The notes under the pieces were generated by a model that was given only the letters and a program-made list of their open reading frames with translations, was not told the DNA's origin and did no database searches. The translations under genes were made by a program, and so were the position numbers. A DNA stretch of 9,987 bases, taken from the IMG/VR virus record IMGVR_UViG_2751185961_000005, positions 1 to 9,987 of that record; one strand, given 5' to 3'. Origin of the DNA: a virus. Lineage: Duplodnaviria; Heunggongvirae; Uroviricota; Caudoviricetes. Shown here piece by piece: positions 1 to 6,941 of this stretch (positions within the stretch are counted from its first letter, which is position 1; every line of letters begins with the position of its first letter).

Positions 1-520
1 AGCGATGGCGGTTATGGTTTGATTCGATTTCATCTACTGCTTCCTGCCCGATGCGGCTAATCAGTTCGACGCGATACGGAACGAGATTTCCGCTTTTGTG
101 CTGGTTGCACACCACGCATTGCTTGTGAATATTGCGTTCATCAAATCGGAGTTGAGGTGCCGCAGCAGTTGTCCGGTAATGTCCGGCATCCCACTGAGCA
201 GACGTGAGCGTTCCGCACGAGATACATGGTAAGTCGCGGTCTCTTTCTCTGATGAAGGCGTTTACGGCTTGTTGGGCTTGTTTAATCCAGTAACTGCGGG
301 GCTTTAAGGCGAGTTTTCGAATCTTCAGTTTATCTTTCTGTTTCTGCTCCTCTCGTCGTCGTTTCTTCTCTGCTGCTTTTTCCGCTTTTTCGCGTTCTTT
401 ACTTCGTCGTTCGAGTGCTAATTGAGTTCCGTGTTCCGGGCAGCACCACCACTGATTTGAGAATGCCGGGTGAAACCATTCTTTGCATATTTTGCATTTC
501 CTTCGCGCTGGTTTAGCCAT
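1..520 (-). CDS. ninG: NinG/Rap-like recombination protein, partial (C-terminus lies beyond the left window edge)
   Basis: Minus-strand translation from the ATG at 520-518 reads [172 protein letters not shown], near-colinear with lambda NinG as I recall it. Open to the window edge, so not in the supplied ORF track. Its ATG overlaps the upstream gene's stop (TAATG). Confidence 0.85.
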
Positions 521-1248
521 TAAGCAGCCTCCCCTGTTACTTTCAGCATTCCGTTATCGAGCAGCTTTCTGGTCAGCCACTGTTGACCACGCCCGGTGAT
601 TTTTGTGGTGAACGATATCTGTATTCCGTGATTTGTGTTGACCGCTGTTTCTTTCACTGTGAAATAGCCGCGATCCATATATTCCTGCATTGGCACATTG
701 CGCCGGGCACCTGAAGTAATAAGGATTTTGTGATCGCGCATCCACGCAAACAGTTTGTTTGGACCAATTCCAACAACCTTTGCATAGTTTCCAATCAAAA
801 TTCCGCTGGCCTCGCCAACGCGATCGGCAAACTCAACTTTAGGTGCTGCGAGAGCAAGCTGTTTCTCCAGTTCAGCCTTCTGGTCTTCAAGGTCGGCCGC
901 AAGGCGCAATGCCTCAGAAAAGGTTTGTGGTATTTTCGCGGTTGCCCCTTCGAGTTCTCGCCAACGGTCAACAAGACGAGCGGTGAATTCCGGCGACAAT
1001 TGGGCAACAACGACAATACTGTCTCGCTTACCTTGTTCGCCTTCGAAGACGTAATGCTCGTACTGAACATTGAACCCTAAGTTATTGATTCTTTCGGAAA
1101 CCTCAATTTGAGGAAGCCGGATAACACCATTTTTAGCCAGCGTTTCGATGGTACGTTTCACATTGTCATGACGCTTACCAACCAACTCAGCGATTTCAAT
1201 GCTTGTCATTTTAATGACGTTGCTATTTATCAGCTCGTTCATTGTCAT
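520..1248 (-). CDS. Phage antirepressor, Rha-family N-terminal domain plus KilAC/Ant C-terminal domain
   Basis: 242-aa ORF. N-terminus [22 protein letters not shown] matches the Rha motif (recalled from family members); the C-terminal half has the Ant/KilAC-like segment [33 protein letters not shown] upstream of ATG at 1248; stop overlaps the ninG start. Confidence 0.8.
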
Positions 1249-1272
1249 GTCCTCTCATATTGAAAATTCAGC

Positions 1273-1300
1273 AATAAAAAACCCAGCCGAAGCTGGGTTT
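1273..1300 (-). terminator. Rho-independent terminator (7-bp GC-rich stem ACCCAGC/GCTGGGT, CGAA loop, T-run on minus strand)
   Basis: Plus strand reads AAAAAACCCAGCCGAAGCTGGGTTT; on the minus strand the hairpin is followed by TTTTTTATTG. Sits between the ORF6N-type gene and the antirepressor gene. Confidence 0.6.
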
Positions 1301-1316
1301 GTTAAGTTGTCAATTG

Positions 1317-2030
1317 TCAGTAACGATGCAGTGAAGGCGGCAACTCTTTGTTCTTAAGCCTTTCCCATGCCAGAAGGTTCGTCGGCCCGTCAGGCTCATA
1401 AATATCTATATCCCGCGTGTGATTAATTAAAACGCCCCTCGCCCTCCCGATGGTATACGAGAACTCATAGCCGTAGTCGTGGCATATGCCGGAATAGCCA
1501 GACTGAATCAGTTTTAATGCGGGATACAACTCACGGAACAATGCCTGTGAGCGGTTGGCATAATCCCACAGCCATACAAGGCTGTCTGTTTCTTTTGCGG
1601 AAAGCCCGTTGAGCTTCTTCTCTTGTTTGCCAGTATTTTTCTCGCACTGGCTGAAATAGCAGTCTTCCAGTTTTTCGAACACTTCCCACGCCTGATCAGT
1701 TTCGAGCATTTTTGCGTGACGGGCTGCGCCTCGTTCTGTCCAGAGGATGAGGGAGCGAACATTGCGGGCGATTTTCACAGAGTAACTTTCTGTTACCTCG
1801 CGGCTAACAGACTCGCTTAAAGATAGTCTGTGCTTGAACTCACGTAGTTCATTCCCTTCCAACTTAAAGAAATGTTTTCCCTGTACAAATCGCGCAGAGT
1901 TACGGGAAAAATTCATTTTTATATTGACTGTTTCAGTGCCATACAATTGCGCCAATAATTCTGTAGTAATTACGGGGATCTGGTTGTAGGCAATTGGGGA
2001 AAGAGTTTCAACGGAAATTTGAGTCGCCAT
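1317..2030 (-). CDS. ORF6N/KilA-N-like domain protein (N-terminal about 90 aa); C-terminal about 140 aa unassigned
   Basis: 237-aa ORF with RBS GAGGG 8 nt upstream of ATG at 2030. N-terminal segment [41 protein letters not shown] resembles the ORF6N pattern (LA.LYGV.T..LN..V.RN..RFP.DFMF.L) as I recall it. The C-terminal half has no motif I recognise. Confidence 0.55.
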
Positions 2031-2051
2031 GACAACGCCCTCTGGTTGATG

Positions 2052-2080
2052 AATTTAACTATCACCACCGTCAGGTGCAA
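2052..2080 (-). promoter_or_regulatory. Candidate sigma70 promoter for the ORF6N-type gene (-35 TTGCAC, 17-bp spacer, -10 TAAATT on minus strand)
   Basis: Minus-strand sequence TTGCAC-N17-TAAATT lies immediately downstream of a terminator and about 20 nt upstream of the RBS and ATG at 2030. Confidence 0.4.
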
Positions 2081-2190
2081 ATCTTTGGGTGGTGAGACGT
2101 ACAGGGTTTGCACTACCGGATCAACCAACCGGCGAGCCTTTCGGCTCCCCCATACGCCCCACCATAATTCAGATGTGCGTGTGCTTACGA

Positions 2191-2216
2191 CAACAAAAAA
2201 CACGCTCGCGGCGTGT
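2191..2216 (-). terminator. Rho-independent terminator (stem ACACGC/GCGTGT, 5-nt loop, T6 run on minus strand)
   Basis: Plus strand reads CAACAAAAAACACGCTCGCGGCGTGT; on the minus strand the hairpin is followed by TTTTTTGTTG. Lies downstream of ninE. Confidence 0.5.
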
Positions 2217-2308
2217 GTCTGTCGCGGTTGAATATCCGGGGTGCAAATCCCGACGCCAGATTTTGCTGGCGCGTGAGGAATATAGCCCCGAATAAATCAT
2301 CACGTCAA

Positions 2309-2491
2309 TCACCTTGTATTCCTCGCACGATGTCTTAGCCACCGGATATCCCACAGGTGAGCCGTGTAATTGAAGGTTTTAACGTCAGATTCTTTTGGGA
2401 TTGGCCTGGGTTTATTTCTGGAACGTTTCGTTGGAAGGTAATTGCAGTTTTCACAGATTATGTCGGTGAAACTTCGTCGCTGTCGCCTCAT
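2309..2491 (-). CDS. ninE: NinE protein
   Basis: Translation [60 protein letters not shown] is near-identical to lambda NinE as recalled. ATG at 2491 overlaps the stop of the upstream ORF (ATGA). An in-frame ATG at 2509 would extend it by 6 codons. Confidence 0.8.
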
Positions 2492-3090
2492 GCCACCCTG
2501 TCTCCCCATCTTGCTTTCATTGTTTCATTTGCAAATCGCCAGAATCTTCCTTTGTGATATGAGCTTTCGCCATTACAGCAACGACTAATTGACGAACTAT
2601 CAAATCCTTCTCTGACAGCATCCATAGCTGCTTCATAATAAACCTCCTCCCCAGTTTTCATGTCAGTAGAAATAACAGCTTTACTGGCAGGATGATCACC
2701 ACTAAATTTACCTAGCGATATAGGTATTCTTCCATTTTGTTTATATCCGTGCTTTGAGTTTTCAGAATGTGATACCCATTCAAGGTTTTCAGCCCTATTG
2801 TCATCTCTTTGCCCATTTTTGTGATTAACTACCAAGCCATCACAGAACCCTGTACAGAATGCTTTCGCAACTATCCTGTGGGCGCTGTATTTCTTACCGT
2901 ATACCTTTATTTGAAGATATCCTGTCGACTTGCACTTGAATGGTTTTACGCTAGTGCCATTAATTATTTTCTTATATGGCCTCTGTCTGGTTGATGTTAC
3001 TGTAATTTCCCTCGTAATAGACCTGAAATTTCCTTTATTGCTAACCTGATAAAATGGAATTCCTTCGATATCTACCCAAACCTCAATCAT
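2488..3090 (-). CDS. NUMOD4-motif HNH homing endonuclease, C-terminus fused in frame to the last about 9 codons of a lambda-like ninB
   Basis: 200-aa ORF with RBS GGAGG before ATG at 3090. N-terminal [17 protein letters not shown] is NUMOD4-like; HNH core reads [23 protein letters not shown]. The C-terminal tail [11 protein letters not shown] matches the lambda NinB C-terminus (EWKARWGDRAA, recalled). AT-rich relative to flanking genes. Confidence 0.75.
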
Positions 3091-3980
3091 AATTCCTCCA
3101 TTCGCTAAGATTAATTGAGTTCATGGCACAATATGCTTCTATGTAGTCCATTATTTCGGATATTTTTTTTACAGATAGAGTCGCCGTACTCTCTCTGATG
3201 TTTATTAGCTCACCTTCTAACCCTGATATAATCTCAGGGTGCTGGTTGGTTGCAATCTGCCAACCAGAAACGAATAACCCCTTCCAAAACTCAATATTTC
3301 TTGCTTTTCCATGATATGTAGCCTTCTTACTTATTTCAGATAGCATCGCGTGAAGGCGTGCATTTTGCCGAATGCTGCGGTTGCGCTGCTTAAACTCGAC
3401 AATGATGTCTAAATCGCATGTCCTAAGATACTGAATGGCGTTATATCTTATAGATTCATTAGTAAGGTGATATTTGACACATTTCATTTTAATACCTCGC
3501 AAATTCGCCGAAACATTCATCCGCTTTATTTGCATATACTTTATGAGCTTCCTTTGGGTCATCGTAAAACCCAAGATTAACTTTCCTCTTGTTGATTACG
3601 ATTTGCGCCCTCCATTTTCTTGATTTCTTATCCCATGAAACGCCTTTATATCCTGATTTGTTATTTGCCTTTTTGTTTACGTTTTGGATGTTTTGAGATC
3701 GAGTTGCCAATCTAAGATTTGCTATACGATTGTCATCCCTAACGAGATTTATGTGGTCGATATCACTTTTTGGTAGACTGCCATTCATATAGAGCCACGC
3801 CAGCCTGTGTGCCTTATAAAGTTTTCCATCGACTTTTATTACCCAGTAGCCTTCGCTACTCTTATGCCCTGCGATATCCCCAGCATTCATTCTCTGGCAT
3901 TTCTTTACTTTCCATGTGAATTTCCCTGTTAACTCATCGTAGAGAAGAACTTCTTTAAGTCTCTGCTGAGTTATTTGATT
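2524..3980 (-). mobile_element. Homing-endonuclease cassette (HNH-AP2 gene, divergent ninB, NUMOD4-HNH gene) embedded between the 5' and 3' remnants of a lambda-like ninB
   Basis: Visibly AT-rich block bounded by in-frame junctions with lambda-like ninB codons on both sides. Two unrelated HNH families bracket a second, divergent ninB allele. Boundaries are approximate. Confidence 0.5.
3083..3487 (-). CDS. ninB: NinB/Orf-family recombination protein, divergent allele lacking the canonical last about 12 residues
   Basis: Starts at ATG 3487 (RBS GCGAGG 8 nt upstream), not the track's upstream Met. Protein MKCVKYHLTNESIRYNAIQYLRTCDLDIIVEFKQRNRSIRQNARLHAMLSE... aligns along its length with lambda NinB (MKKLTFEIRSPAHQQNAIHAVQQILPDPTKPIVVTIQERNRSLDQNRKLWA..., recalled). 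Ends SEWRNYD* where lambda continues ARLALEWKARWGDRAA. Confidence 0.7.
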   Translation of the reverse strand: MKCVKYHLTNESIRYNAIQYLRTCDLDIIVEFKQRNRSIRQNARLHAMLSEISKKATYHGKARNIEFWKGLFVSGWQIATNQHPEIISGLEGELINIRESTATLSVKKISEIMDYIEAYCAMNSINLSEWRNYD

Positions 3981-4076
3981 GATTGGTTTGGTTGGGTCTG
4001 GAAGAATTTGCTGGATAGCTTGAATGGCGTTCTGCTGATGGATGGGGCTTCTTAGTTCAAATGTTAGTTTCCTCAT
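3489..4076 (-). CDS. HNH endonuclease with C-terminal AP2-type DNA-binding domain, N-terminus fused in frame to the first about 32 codons of a lambda-like ninB
   Basis: Start taken at ATG 4076 (M28 of the track ORF; RBS-like GAGAGGA upstream). First 32 aa MRKLTFELRSPIHQQNAIQAIQQILPDPTKPI are about 27/32 identical to the lambda NinB N-terminus. They are followed by the HNH motif DIDHINLVRDDNRIANLRLATRSQN and an AP2-like segment SGYKGVSWDKKSRKWRAQIVINKRKVNLGFYDDPKEAHKVYANKA. Confidence 0.75.
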   Translation of the reverse strand: MRKLTFELRSPIHQQNAIQAIQQILPDPTKPINQITQQRLKEVLLYDELTGKFTWKVKKCQRMNAGDIAGHKSSEGYWVIKVDGKLYKAHRLAWLYMNGSLPKSDIDHINLVRDDNRIANLRLATRSQNIQNVNKKANNKSGYKGVSWDKKSRKWRAQIVINKRKVNLGFYDDPKEAHKVYANKADECFGEFARY

Positions 4077-4239
4077 CACCCTTAATCCTCTCGAAGTTCT
4101 TCTCGAAGTTTTTGGTGTCGAACACTGACCACCGACCATTATGAATGGCGTATGCACAGGTCTTGTTTTCGTCCTGATAAACTACCCTTACCTTGCGATA
4201 AAACCGTGGCTTAATCTCTCTGAATATTTGCTCGCTCAT
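4057..4239 (-). CDS. Hypothetical small protein (60 aa)
   Basis: RBS AAGGAG 5-6 nt upstream of ATG at 4239. Protein MSEQIFREIKPRFYRKVRVVYQDENKTCAYAIHNGRWSVFDTKNFEKNFERIKGDEETNI. The 3' end overlaps the ninB-type start by about 20 nt. No recognisable motif. Confidence 0.5.
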   Translation of the reverse strand: MSEQIFREIKPRFYRKVRVVYQDENKTCAYAIHNGRWSVFDTKNFEKNFERIKGDEETNI

Positions 4240-4249
4240 GCTCACTCCT

Positions 4250-4465
4250 TCACTTTAAATCCAGACTCCGGATAATTCTGTTGCGCTGAAACTCATTGTT
4301 GAGTTTGAACAACCGTCGAAGAACACGGTCACGCGGATAGCGTCGTGCGGCAGGTGAATGCTCATACAACTCATCAAGCGGCAAACTGGACGATGAACGA
4401 TACCGATACCAACGCACCAACTCTTCACGAAAATTAGCCCTGACAAGCTCAGCTATCGTACTCAT
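4250..4465 (-). CDS. Hypothetical small arginine-rich protein (71 aa)
   Basis: RBS GAGGAGG about 9 nt upstream of ATG at 4465; tightly packed against the next gene. Very basic (many Arg), suggesting nucleic-acid binding. No recognisable motif. Confidence 0.55.
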   Translation of the reverse strand: MSTIAELVRANFREELVRWYRYRSSSSLPLDELYEHSPAARRYPRDRVLRRLFKLNNEFQRNRIIRSLDLK

Positions 4466-4597
4466 TTCTTAAAACCTCCTCAAACGCATTCTGACGCATT
4501 TTTCATTCTCGCTGCTTATTGGCATGCCTTGCACGCGTTTACCTCGCTACAGAGCGATTGTGATGCCTTAAAAGCGATTTATTGAAGTGATATTTGC

Positions 4598-4876
4598 TTA
4601 ATCGAAATTCTTTTCTTTGATTCCTGCGGCCCTGATGGCTTTCATTACTGCAATTACCGTTTTGTCACGCCCATCCTCATAACCCATCGCATAAGCACCT
4701 TCTTCACCATCTTTCCAAAAGTCGTCATTCGATTCGGGCCAGTCGATATCCAGTTCAATAGCAGAGCGCGATGCCTGCCATATCACCCAGGCAAACTCTT
4801 TTAATTCATCGTCTCCCGTGAACTGGCTTTTGTCTTTTGACCACCAGTTTTCAAACTGTCGGTAGCTATCGTTCAC
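4598..4876 (-). CDS. Hypothetical small acidic Trp-rich protein (about 92 aa, GTG start)
   Basis: The track ORF begins at a TTG inside the terminator T-run. An in-frame GTG at 4876 is preceded by GGGGGAGAGGG (RBS). By eye about 21 Asp+Glu against about 12 Lys+Arg, and 6 Trp. Confidence 0.5.
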   Translation of the reverse strand: MNDSYRQFENWWSKDKSQFTGDDELKEFAWVIWQASRSAIELDIDWPESNDDFWKDGEEGAYAMGYEDGRDKTVIAVMKAIRAAGIKEKNFD

Positions 4877-4889
4877 TTCCCTCTCCCCC

Positions 4890-4921
4890 AAATAAAAAGG
4901 CCTGCGATTACCAGCAGGCCT
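4890..4921 (-). terminator. Rho-independent terminator, tR2-like position (8-bp stem AGGCCTGC/GCAGGCCT, 8-nt loop, T-run on minus strand)
   Basis: On the minus strand the hairpin is followed by TTTTTATTTG. Lies between the primase-helicase stop (4951) and the first small nin-proximal ORF. Confidence 0.55.
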
Positions 4922-4950
4922 GCTATCAGCTCAGTGATGTAGATGGTCAT

Positions 4951-6831
4951 TTAATACTCCGTCACGTTTTCCTGTCTCCACGCCTCGTCATATTCCGATT
5001 TCGGCATATTGGCGATGTAGCTATATGGAGATCCTGATTCAAGTTGCAGGAACTGGTGCGATTGCTCGTCAAGGAACAACGGGATACCACCTTCCCAACC
5101 TTCACCGTTACGTTGTTTTTCAAGCAACAAAACAGATGCCGGAGACACCAGTAGCTGTTCGTCCTTCTCTGACATCTGTTCACCGCTTTGAACTCTCTGT
5201 AACGCTCTCTCGCGAGCCTTGTTACGCCAGATGATAAAAAGGTTGTCTGTCAGGTCTGTTATCGCTCCAGAGCCTTTTACGTCCATTTTCCCGGTTGGTT
5301 TTTCTTCGCTGTCTCCTTTTCGCGAGTGAGTAACGAGAATGACGTGGGAGTTTGTTTTGTTTTTGAAGTCGCAAATCGAGTCAACAAACGCCTTCTGCCC
5401 GTTATAGTCATCGTCGCCTATGCCACATTTCATCAGGCTGTCGATGATGAATAACTGGATACCGTATCGGCGGCGAGCGTAGTCGAATATTTCGATCAGC
5501 CTGTCGGCTTTCGCCGTTCCGGTCAGGCCAAACACCCAAAGTCTTTCGTCATAAAATTTAAATGCAGAGTCAATTTCCAGCACTGGCGGCATCTTGCAGC
5601 ACGTCGCCTGACGGGTAAGGCGCTTAAGGAGAATACCAGGCTTCAGCTCAAGTGACGCGATGCACGTCTTCACACCCTGACGCATTGCCTCAAGTGCCAT
5701 ATGCCCGACAACCTCCGTTTTTCCGTGACCGTTCACACCATTGACCAGCGTCAACTCGGCCTCACGGAACTGGAATTTATCTGCCAGAGATTCCCACGGT
5801 GGATTAAACAGATACTGCTGCTTGCCGTAGAAAGCGTTGATAGTGTCCTGGTAAAACTCTCGCGCGCTGTAGAGTTCTTCAGGATCGAAGTAGGATGCCG
5901 TGCCGATGTACTGCCAGATTTCATCCTCGGTAACACCGTTCATCAGGCATTCGTTGATGTCTTTGTACGGCAGAGTAACAAGACGGCAACGATGTTCACC
6001 GAGTCGGCTTGCGATTTCCCTTGCGGCTTCACGACCAACATCATCAACATCCATCGAGATGAATATTTCCTCAAACCTGTCGAGGTTGTGATACTCAAAC
6101 TCAATCCACTGCTGCTTAGCGCCTTTCCCGCCACCAAACGGCACGGATAACGCCGAGATGCCGTATTGCGCATAGCTCATACAATCAATTTCGCCTTCGC
6201 AAAGTACAACCGCCCTCACGCCAGCGTCCAGAGCCTGCCATCCGAACAGACAAGGTTCGCAATCACCTTCTGCCATAATGACTTTCTTCCCGTCCGGGCG
6301 CTCAGTGCTGATTCGCTTGACCTGCAACAACTCACCATCGCGTTTGTACGGAAGCACCAGAGCATCCAGTTCCCGCTCTCCATTCCACACCTTGCCGCTG
6401 ACAACCTCGTAGCGCTTTACGACTTCTGGCGATATGCCACGCGATTGCAGGTACTCAAGATGGGATTCTGTTCTGGTAACGTAACTGGCGATTTTCTTGC
6501 GATCAGGTCTGGAGAATTTCTTCTCACGTCTGGCATCGAAATGGTGATCGTCATCCTTGATACCGAGAAATGCTTTCGCTTCCTGCATAGCCTGATGCAG
6601 GTTAATTCCACGACATGCCATCCACAAATCAAGCATGTCACCGCCGTCTCCCTCAGCGAAATCAGCCCATTTTTTCTTGCCGCTAAGGTTGACCTTAAGG
6701 CTGTTTCCCTTGTCACCGTTAACGTTACCGGCAACCCACTCATGCCCCTCTTTCTTGCCGTTTGGCAACAGGTGCGGAGCCACCCTGTCAACCTGCGCCC
6801 AAAGCAGGTCGCTCAGTTCACTTGGAGTCAT
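4951..6831 (-). CDS. Bifunctional DNA primase/helicase (Toprim domain plus DnaB-like/SF4 RecA-fold helicase)
   Basis: 626-aa ORF. Toprim-like acidic motif VVLCEGEIDCMS; Walker A GVNGHGKT; Walker B-like LFIIDSLMK. Position matches the lambda P slot downstream of the initiator. Confidence 0.85.
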   Translation of the reverse strand: MTPSELSDLLWAQVDRVAPHLLPNGKKEGHEWVAGNVNGDKGNSLKVNLSGKKKWADFAEGDGGDMLDLWMACRGINLHQAMQEAKAFLGIKDDDHHFDARREKKFSRPDRKKIASYVTRTESHLEYLQSRGISPEVVKRYEVVSGKVWNGERELDALVLPYKRDGELLQVKRISTERPDGKKVIMAEGDCEPCLFGWQALDAGVRAVVLCEGEIDCMSYAQYGISALSVPFGGGKGAKQQWIEFEYHNLDRFEEIFISMDVDDVGREAAREIASRLGEHRCRLVTLPYKDINECLMNGVTEDEIWQYIGTASYFDPEELYSAREFYQDTINAFYGKQQYLFNPPWESLADKFQFREAELTLVNGVNGHGKTEVVGHMALEAMRQGVKTCIASLELKPGILLKRLTRQATCCKMPPVLEIDSAFKFYDERLWVFGLTGTAKADRLIEIFDYARRRYGIQLFIIDSLMKCGIGDDDYNGQKAFVDSICDFKNKTNSHVILVTHSRKGDSEEKPTGKMDVKGSGAITDLTDNLFIIWRNKARERALQRVQSGEQMSEKDEQLLVSPASVLLLEKQRNGEGWEGGIPLFLDEQSHQFLQLESGSPYSYIANMPKSEYDEAWRQENVTEY

Positions 6832-6938
6832 TACGCTGACCTCAGATCGAGACGGTTAAACCAGAACTCAACGAATGCAGAACTAAGCCAGCCATGGTTA
6901 TAGCCAGCGATAAGTAACGATTTGATTCTGGATTTCAT
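6831..6938 (-). CDS. Candidate 35-codon micro-ORF between initiator and primase-helicase
   Basis: ATG at 6938 lies 3 nt after the initiator stop, with AGGTGA just upstream. Translation MKSRIKSLLIAGYNHGWLSSAFVEFWFNRLDLRSA. Its TAA overlaps the primase-helicase ATG (TAATG). Below the track size cut-off. Confidence 0.3.
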   Translation of the reverse strand: MKSRIKSLLIAGYNHGWLSSAFVEFWFNRLDLRSA

Positions 6939-6941
6939 GGT

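Follow-up and report, generated by a model that had tools for sequence, protein, structure and literature searches.

Homing endonucleases usually spare the genes of their hosts by residing in introns or inteins or by occupying intergenic positions. Here we describe a ninB locus in which two intron-less and intein-less HNH homing-endonuclease genes (HEGs), termed HEG1 and HEG2, have probably settled independently of each other inside the reading frame itself, one near each end, each supplying the part of ninB that it displaced. The locus is contained in IMG/VR virus record IMGVR_UViG_2751185961_000005 (Caudoviricetes). The stretch of DNA analysed, positions 1 to 9,987 of that record, is called the window in the following; it corresponds in reverse orientation to contig MECV01000045.1 of assembly GCA_001722155.1 (an E. 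coli/Shigella draft) and is the early-right region of a lambdoid prophage.

The closest relative of solved structure is I-HmuI, a nicking enzyme that drives intron homing. Endonucleases of the I-HmuI/I-HmuII/I-BasI type from Bacillus phages consist, like the HEG2 product, of an HNH core followed by a NUMOD-like DNA-binding region. Their genes lie inside group I introns of DNA polymerase genes, whereas no intron is present here and the nuclease sits directly in the ninB frame, fused to ninB codons. A paper on phages SPO1 and SP82 that describes a nicking homing endonuclease is among those listed in PMC2988022. Free-standing endonucleases of phage T4 cause localized marker exclusion along with co-conversion, and one of them, SegA, cuts in the recombination gene uvsX (PMC2988022). 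With T4-like Seg and Mob endonucleases the genes described here share the lack of an intron or intein, polymorphism between related phages and a way of spreading thought to involve cleavage of the HEG-minus genome and co-conversion of flanks, resulting in local mosaicism (PMC2988022). On the other hand, seg and mob genes are located between genes and their products may cut hundreds of base pairs away, while HEG1 and HEG2 lie inside an open reading frame (ORF), use the start or stop codon of that frame and come with replacements for the gene ends. As far as it is cited in PMC2988022, mobE in nrdA of Aeromonas phage Aeh1 likewise represents a free-standing HNH gene within a conserved phage gene that retains its function; there, the nrdA product is split into two polypeptides that reassemble, whereas in ninB a surrogate replaces the displaced end and the old end persists only as a tag on a nuclease.

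The HEGs in atp6 of Allomyces macrogynus and in atp6 and cox2 of Phlebia radiata are joined in frame to the 3' end of the host gene, bring a foreign or duplicated C-terminal coding segment as its alternative end and leave the original end behind as a remnant (PMC4019555). This is the same logic as in HEG2 and the mirror image of HEG1. The fungal mitochondrial elements are of the LAGLIDADG or GIY-YIG type and affect 3' ends only (PMC4019555), whereas here HNH genes of a temperate phage affect both ends, and the 5' case requires the start codon of the host gene. In the lambdoid/P22-like phage epsilon34, gene 31 joins the eaE N-terminus in frame with an HNH homing endonuclease (PMC2629481) as is the case for HEG1; the host gene is a different one, and neither a surrogate end nor a presence/absence series is described there. 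NinB/Orf-related sequence and an HNH domain also occur in one polypeptide in the DUF968 (PF06147) Orf-HNH fusions of Gram-positive phages (PMC4118853, PMC2034487). Furthermore, 'HEG islands' as well as HEGs within essential genes and at exchange boundaries have been reported (PMC10448857). The literature searched contains no description of ninB as a homing target, of a 5' unit that relies on the start codon of its host gene and brings along a surrogate gene start, of a decaying series of NinB tails on a 3' nuclease, or of double occupancy that leaves a gene composed of HEG-linked sequence alone.

The ninB locus of the window consists of the following elements, given in the direction of reading (all on the minus strand):

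4076-3489: ORF-A, 195 aa, ninB remnant plus HEG1 body; stop codon TAA at 3491-3489
3981..4076: 5' remnant of the recipient ninB, start codon and codons 1-32 (MRKLTFELRSPIHQQNAIQAIQQILPDPTKPI); 27 of 32 residues as in lambda NinB
3489..3980: HEG1 body, HNH_3 plus AP2 endonuclease that lacks its own start codon and continues the frame of the ninB remnant
3980-3386: HEG1 unit, 595 nt; nuclease body, stop, one spacer base and a 34-codon ninB 5' end with its own ribosome-binding site (RBS)
3386..3487: surrogate ninB 5' end; RBS GAGG, ATG and 34 codons (MKCVKYHLTNESIRYNAIQYLRTCDLDIIVEFKQ) that substitute the displaced ninB codons 1-38
3487-3083: ORF-B, complete NinB of 134 aa, beginning one base after the ORF-A TAA and preceded by GAGG
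3374..3385: 12-nt junction CGCAACCGCAGC (RNRS), right boundary of HEG1 and left boundary of the type-2/HEG2 block
3083..3373: type-2 NinB body (IRQNARLHAML...SEWRNYD and stop); DNA 99.3% identical to phage P27 and 43% identical to lambda
3090-2488: ORF-C, 200 aa, HEG2 body plus tail; RBS GGAGG, overlapping the ORF-B stop by 8 nt
2518..3090: HEG2 body, NUMOD4 plus HNH_3 plus NUMOD-like region, I-HmuI type; its ATG overlaps the ORF-B end by 8 nt
2488..2517: 3' remnant of a lambda-type ninB, KARWGDRVA and stop, in frame with HEG2; the stop overlaps the ninE start (ATGA)

A preliminary description of this DNA, made from the letters alone, had proposed that ORF-A joins the first codons of a lambda-like ninB in frame to an HNH endonuclease with an AP2 domain, and this is what we find. 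Residues 1-41 retrieved lambda NinB (PDB 1PC6) in a phmmer search with E=2.2e-12, and the DNA of the 5' remnant is 100% identical to the ninB 5' end of the Shiga toxin (Stx) phage P27. The remaining part matches HNH_3 (PF13392) with E=9.5e-17 and AP2 with E=8.6e-7 and 29.6 bits, below the Pfam cut-off of 33.3. The AP2 identity is supported by an AlphaFold model (mean predicted local distance difference test score, pLDDT, 80.6), in which the C-terminal domain superposes on plant AP2 domains with 1.3-1.6 A root-mean-square deviation and which has I-HmuI as its top PDB match. The nuclease body reaches pLDDT values of 80-94, the first 32 residues 42-59, and the latter are predicted to lie outside the folded nuclease. 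A functional fusion of the DUF968 type, i.e. a complete Orf-like domain plus a zinc-finger HNH, was considered for ORF-A and rejected on the basis of these low values, the presence of merely 32 NinB residues and a Pfam search of ORF-A that yielded no PF06147 match. Residues D107, H108, N116, N120 and N129 are invariant among 15 homologues.

Free-standing homologues of HEG1 comprise 160-170 aa and start with M..ITQxRLKE exactly at the position of the junction. The HEG1 unit contains no in-frame start codon ahead of Met63, and a start at Met63 would delete a conserved and confidently modelled N-terminal module. HEG1 therefore depends on the ninB start codon, and the 5' remnant now appears to serve as its translation start and N-terminal extension. 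In complete genomes, the RefSeq annotation pipeline PGAP calls the fusion (loci L003-L005, 4081-4197) a 161/164-aa HNH endonuclease from an internal Met plus an 'incomplete HNH endonuclease' pseudogene. In these loci the NinB(1-32)-HEG1 frame runs without interruption from the start codon of ninB (GTG in strain TO6). A free-standing HNH_3 plus AP2 gene of 203 aa, 40% identical to HEG1, is located between dnaB and ninB in E. coli ETEC1720 (L032, 3529-4140), a prophage that also carries type-2 NinB, NUMOD4-HNH and NinE; it may be related to the in-frame HEG1 or represent its free-standing precursor.

ORF-B had been predicted as a complete but divergent NinB with its own RBS, one nucleotide past the ORF-A stop. 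It indeed matches Pfam NinB (PF05772) with E=3.4e-32 over profile positions 4-129 of 131, shares 27% of its residues with lambda NinB and constitutes the sole complete NinB in the window. Its model (pLDDT 82) gave 1PC6 as the sole significant PDB match (E=6.5e-8). ORF-B ends short of the lambda C-terminus, as had been noted, and this shortness turned out to be the normal end of a widespread clade, termed type-2 NinB here; a 'truncated' NinB was rejected, as about 138 aa ending in NYD or NYE is the usual length in this clade. The RBS/start region of HEG2 supplies the final five codons and the stop codon of type-2 NinB. Judged from these sequence relationships, ORF-B is a composite of the HEG1-linked 34-codon surrogate and the HEG2-linked type-2 body, joined at the RNRS codons.

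For ORF-C, the predicted NUMOD4-type HNH endonuclease with its own RBS and overlaps with both the ORF-B stop and the ninE ATG is likewise borne out. Pfam matches comprise NUMOD4 (1.5e-13), HNH_3 (8.2e-12) and the I-HmuI NUMOD-like region (8.5e-4), the protein aligns with I-HmuI (PDB 1U3E) over almost its full length (E=4.7e-14) with the equivalents of H75, N83, N87 and N96 retained, and PADLOC reports a 'homing endonuclease' match (2.3e-26). Eight of the nine residues of the KARWGDRVA tail are identical to lambda KARWGDRAA, and 26 of 29 aligned nucleotides agree within the last 30 nt (about 90%). The NinB remnant on ORF-C is thus genuine and covers nine codons instead of the proposed eleven, the preceding 'TM' belonging to the endonuclease. 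The two HNH genes had been called unrelated, which does not hold: they share the HNH_3 core, with 44% identity over 57 aa, while the DNA-binding modules differ. Taken by themselves, both nucleases are ordinary HNH_3/I-HmuI-like homing endonucleases, and existing annotations of Stx phages already label the NUMOD4 gene that follows ninB in this way. HEG2 homologues natively measure 190-194 aa and end with ..WRFADERMAA, the KARWGDRxA tail being extra in the E. coli version and missing from homologues of 193 aa. The native lengths of the homologues identify both NinB extensions as foreign to the nucleases. The suspected AT-richness of the insert was confirmed by GC contents of 38.7% for block 2518-3980 and 47-48% for the flanks.

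Junctions were placed by a four-way DNA alignment of the window with lambda, strain TO6 (HEG1 only) and P27 (HEG2 only), i.e. with intact ninB loci as had been suggested. On the left, HEG1 begins after CCAACCAAACCAATC (window position 3981). On the right, the CGCAACCGCAGC sequence is identical at 12 of 12 positions in lambda, TO6, P27 and the window, and identity shifts sharply on either side of it. Compared with P27, the window has 18 nt (GTAGTAACCATTCAGGAA, codons VVTIQE) exchanged for 595 nt and lacks a Dam module; these are the two differences. The surrogate 5' end aligns to NinB N-termini minus four codons and reads IIVEFKQ where every other NinB reads (I/L/F)VVTIQE, and 11 of 18 nt differ from the HEG-minus site.

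Each of the four possible occupancy states of ninB occurs in nature, with identical junctions in every case. Complete-genome counts refer to 5,426 complete E. coli genomes, and HEG1 was searched with the 606-nt insert as query (8 of 5,426 genomes, 98.8-100% identity):

Neither HEG: e.g. lambda; intact lambda-type ninB in 1,287 complete E. coli genomes
HEG1 only: e.g. TO6; 8 complete genomes, 9 IMG/VR contigs and 2 Salmonella records
HEG2 only: e.g. P27 and O157:H7 prophages (Stx2 phages); 77 complete genomes
Both: e.g. the window; at least 22 draft contigs with different prophage backbones, none in complete genomes

In HEG1-only loci the unit resides within an otherwise lambda-type ninB without NUMOD4-HNH. 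The upstream ORF reads (V/M)KKLTFEIRSPAHQQNAIHAVQQILPDPTKPI fused to the same nuclease, and the downstream NinB starts with MKCVKYHL...IVEFKQ followed by lambda-identical RNRSLDQNRKLW...KARWGDRAA. The Stx2-converting phages with HEG2 only (P27, O157:H7 prophages) match the region at about 97% and have the order uninterrupted 138-aa NinB, same NUMOD4-HNH, Dam methylase, NinE. The P27-type NinB is lambda-like through ..VVTIQERNRS and type-2 beyond. In P27 and in the window, the type-2 body together with HEG2 is spliced into lambda-like ninB ends at the RNRS codons on the left and at codon K138 on the right, and two different lambda-like 5' ends are joined to the type-2 body, MRKLTFELRSPIH.. in P27 and MKKLTFEIRSPAH.. 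in ETEC1720. The Dam-type N6-adenine methyltransferase gene that follows NUMOD4-HNH in Stx2 phages (528 nt; P27, L001 1784-2311) is precisely missing in the window (cf. 2488-2517). Both of its boundaries are GGGCKGCATGA-type stop/start overlaps resembling a module-exchange junction. HEG1-only prophages carry Dam, an MT-A70 methylase or nothing at this position.

Several sequence comparisons speak for a mobile HEG1. The unit is identical at 589-595 of 595 positions in 22 loci that represent six or more different ninB backgrounds, while the adjoining ninB differs between backgrounds by 22% (5' remnant) to 56% (3' part). Between the window and TO6, identity amounts to 78% for ninB codons 1-32, 595/595 for the unit and 44% for the downstream ninB. 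Nucleotide diversity among ten HEG1-only loci is 0.49% for the unit and 0.0% for the surrogate compared with 2.4% for the 5' remnant and 5.3-6.5% for downstream ninB, and the surrogate is invariant in 20 loci, within a unit that occurs in lambda-type and type-2 ninB alike. HEG1 is thus closer between genomes than its flanks; for HEG2, which co-diverges with type-2 NinB, this is not the case. At the HEG-minus site, a 33-nt stretch (CCAACCAAACCAATCGTAGTAACCATTCAGGAA) is identical in 76 of 79 lambda-type loci from a sample chosen by identity to lambda NinB (the survey of related loci returned only lambda-identical NinB loci, which were used as controls). The site is also the same in lambda and P27, though the upstream ninB codons 1-32 are only 78% identical. 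A 69%-identical relative of HEG1 (P0106) is fused to another NinB N-terminus, MRKQTFEIRTPLVQQNAIRTIQQLYPDL, and followed by TGA ATG.. and then MKTIRYHLIDES, i.e. by the same type of surrogate. This repetition of fusion plus surrogate speaks for an old design of HEG1 and against a one-off accident.

HEG2 presents a different picture. An HNH gene overlaps the last codons of type-2 NinB in every close context examined, i.e. in E. coli, Yersinia, a metagenome-assembled genome (MAG) labelled Acinetobacter, Pantoea and several metagenomes. Its tail varies: in one locus (L030) it reads WRF-SDASRLEIEWATRWGKS, which compares with lambda NinB W-SDEARLALEWKARWGDRAA, the whole NinB part that type-2 proteins lack, and in Yersinia (L020) GDKGKVAA. 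In a JGI metagenome contig (L027, 3410-3961) an HNH_3 plus AP2 gene, whose C-terminus AIEWASRFGDKQRAAA resembles that of lambda NinB, takes the NUMOD4-HNH position after type-2 ninB, which indicates replacement of the nuclease at a fixed site. One locus (L028) has no nuclease after type-2 ninB; a 60-aa ORF found there was considered as a HEG remnant and dismissed, as nothing recognisable of a HEG is left in it. Some E. coli HEG2 variants (P0228/P0230/P0232) are either truncated or, in a G-rich run, frameshifted beyond approximately residue 147 and have lost the C-terminal DNA-binding region, either through decay of the element or through sequencing error. We read HEG2 as an old insertion in the 3' part of ninB, after which the displaced NinB C-terminus would have stayed on the nuclease and decayed to a variable extent, with occasional replacement of the nuclease.

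Several observations weigh against two mobile homing endonucleases in ninB. The equivalent of I-HmuI D74, presumably a metal ligand, is Asn in HEG2; profile searches found the HNH core and the recognition modules in both ORFs, in ORF-C together with this exchange. At the same loci, NinB is 99/84/71/67/61% and HEG2 97.5/77/65/62/54% identical, and this stepwise co-divergence makes HEG2 and type-2 NinB mostly a stably inherited pair and less a frequently moving element. The possibility of a fixed, non-mobile arrangement, raised in the preliminary description, therefore applies in part to HEG2, the NinB/HNH pair being long-lived and co-diverging across genera. Mutation of W50 and R103 impairs DNA binding by lambda Orf, and a C-terminal helix (W137/W141) contributes to it (PMC4118853). 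In type-2 NinB, W50 is replaced by His, R103 by Thr, and the helix is missing, while Q45/N46 and RNRS are kept; lambda-like Orf function is therefore not assured, activity may differ, and a functional ninB is suggested by conservation. Tract-like synonymous variants just downstream of HEG1 are present in HEG-minus alleles as well: the AAGCTTTGGGC-type variants occur in 10 of 11 HEG1-only loci and also in 16 of the 79 HEG-minus loci (a sample selected for lambda NinB identity), and a downstream co-conversion tract is at best a tentative reading of them. Finally, short perfectly conserved stretches of 24 nt and 12 nt flank the elements, which makes transfer by ordinary phage recombination possible without any contribution of a nuclease.

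The latter two points lead to an alternative in which the HNH genes are cargo or decaying passengers. The arrangement would have arisen and spread only through the usual recombination between homologous or short matching stretches of conserved ninB sequence, as happens elsewhere in the lambdoid nin region, and endonuclease-initiated conversion would play no part. The flanks could serve Red-type recombination, the synonymous variants would be standing polymorphism, and the Dam module provides an example of precise presence or absence between GGGCKGCATGA-type junctions at the very same locus. We nevertheless regard such passive mosaicism as improbable. Both ORFs are intact with conserved catalytic residues and exist in hundreds of copies (592 and 281 members in clusters at 90% identity), the more than ten-fold diversity trough at HEG1 relative to adjoining ninB is the pattern of an element outpacing its host gene, no DNA stretch of ninB is more conserved than the insertion site, and the same two positions are repeatedly occupied by nucleases of two families.

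Co-divergence, in turn, could mean that the nuclease after type-2 NinB, and perhaps HEG1 too, is a functional part of a NinB-nuclease recombination module comparable to the DUF968 fusions, kept for its benefit to the phage and not as a selfish element. The pair with its constant stop/start overlap co-diverges in E. coli, Yersinia, Pantoea and the Acinetobacter-labelled MAG, Orf-HNH fusions and the idea of NinB-nuclease cooperation exist in the literature (PMC4118853, PMC2034487), and the tail of the nuclease keeps part of the NinB C-terminal helix, a contributor to DNA binding in lambda Orf (PMC4118853). This rival is serious for HEG2 only. HEG1 is rare, nearly invariant and clearly inserted. 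Even HEG2, however, is a full-length homing endonuclease of the I-HmuI type with site-recognition modules, the same position holds another nuclease family in L027 and none in L028, frameshifted copies exist (P0228, P0230), and most ninB genes are free of a nuclease, 1,287 E. coli genomes having lambda-type ninB and no nuclease. Taken over both genes, we consider domestication of this kind an unlikely explanation.

The window is a short draft contig of 9,987 nt, and PGAP calls the 5' remnant a pseudogene fragment in related genomes, which could raise the suspicion of a chimeric contig or a frameshifted pseudogene region. The same arrangement recurs in no fewer than 22 independent contigs, which stem from different assemblies and read sets. 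Complete genomes contain both the HEG1-only and the HEG2-only version, and all ORFs are open and in register. An artefact of assembly or annotation is ruled out by this independent recurrence and need hardly be entertained. An origin as one cassette was rejected as well, because the HEG1 unit is 99-100% identical in lambda-type ninB without HEG2, HEG2 plus type-2 NinB occurs without HEG1, and natural type-2 NinB proteins have ordinary ..KPxVVTIQE.. N-termini. Of the original proposal, homing-type endonuclease genes travelling with substitute ninB sequence agree with the comparison of 22 loci and with HEG-minus and HEG-plus alleles at both sites, while a single insert with a single foreign allele does not. 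A group I intron or intein was dismissed in view of three separate ORFs with their own stops and RBSs and of an Rfam E-value scan of 2200-4500 that revealed no intron and only isrK/c4-type RNAs at 2200-2285. A defence system was also discarded; PADLOC yielded only generic 'homing endonuclease' matches and a weak ZorE HNH match.

We thus favour two independent insertions of homing endonuclease genes, and most likely the window arose when a P27-like, HEG2-only ninB received the HEG1 unit. Its identity to P27 is 100% for the 5' remnant, 99.3% for the type-2 body and 98.6% for HEG2, and its identity to TO6 is 100% for the unit. In this course of events, the working NinB would consist of HEG-linked DNA only, with the older lambda-like ninB left as 32 plus 9 codons on two nucleases. 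The HEG1 unit has replaced 18 nt (codons VVTIQE) of the conserved ninB site. The nuclease would be translated from the RBS and ATG of ninB as a NinB(1-32)-nuclease fusion, and ninB would restart one base past the HEG1 stop from the RBS of the unit with the divergent 34-codon surrogate, the divergence of which presumably destroys the target site. HEG2, in turn, overlaps the 3' end of type-2 NinB, with its RBS and start encoding the last NinB codons and stop, and reads out via the last nine codons and the stop of the displaced lambda-type ninB.

During lytic growth, the nin region is among the early-transcribed parts of the genome. When HEG-plus and HEG-minus lambdoid genomes are active in one cell, the nuclease may nick or cut the conserved HEG-minus ninB site, and repair by recombination from the HEG-plus copy would transfer the nuclease gene together with a surrogate ninB segment that lacks the site. 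Some E. coli genomes contain up to four lambda-type ninB copies, and mixed HEG-plus/HEG-minus cells are therefore likely to be common.

The genes surrounding the locus are arranged as follows:

8623-9270, plus strand: cI-like repressor; the plus strand also holds one ORF without assignment
Minus strand, first in order: cro-like, cII, HTH_36 initiator, Toprim/AAA_25 primase-helicase and phiTE_015-family genes
Minus strand, thereafter: DUF7301 gene, 62-aa ORF, ninB region, ninE, two antirepressor genes and the start of ninG
2309..2491, minus strand: ninE, 60 aa (Pfam NinE, E=3.6e-41), flanking gene that delimits the ninB locus downstream

Between ninE and the ORF6N/P22_AR antirepressor gene (1317-2030), positions 2200-2285 on the minus strand match the Rfam family isrK with 61.4 bits, above the gathering score and cut at the 3' end of the searched stretch, and the c4 antisense-RNA target family a1b1 with 45.8 bits, slightly below the gathering score. 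This region probably exerts small-RNA control of the antirepressor operon. A 162-aa ORF (9267-9755, plus strand) directly downstream of the cI-like repressor gene and overlapping it is AT-rich (36-40% GC) and has a position typical of an accessory (moron) gene expressed in the lysogen; it gave no PADLOC match, and its orthologue on a sister contig is without a recorded Pfam family. The sister contig of the window (L007) contains a further HNH_3 plus AP2 gene of 170 aa downstream of the Q antiterminator (10330-10842; AP2 35.1 bits, above the cut-off). As its ninB is also occupied by both HEGs, this phage holds at least three HNH genes.

Beyond the single locus, a wider and rather doubtful proposal is that ninB constitutes a family-wide, long-standing landing pad for intron-less HNH endonucleases that carry surrogate gene ends. 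The entire type-2 clade would then have been born of such an insertion, which removed the C-terminal DNA-binding helix from NinB and left it on the nuclease, and the pair would have co-evolved and now perhaps form a co-adapted nuclease-mediator module. In such a module, the break would be introduced by a selfish nuclease, and its repair would be promoted by the very gene that carries this nuclease.

The locus also exposes a recurrent annotation error, in that the fusion is called a truncated HNH gene plus a pseudogene. Apart from introns and inteins on the one hand and intergenic locations on the other, ninB would represent a third route in a temperate phage, with the nuclease placed in the reading frame, the host start or stop codon taken over and the displaced end replaced. 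With four natural occupancy states in lambda-like phages, it offers a tractable system for the study of homing, co-conversion and target immunity, and this system could be used to test an endonuclease origin of some of the sharp mosaic boundaries of the nin region, including those of Stx-converting phages.

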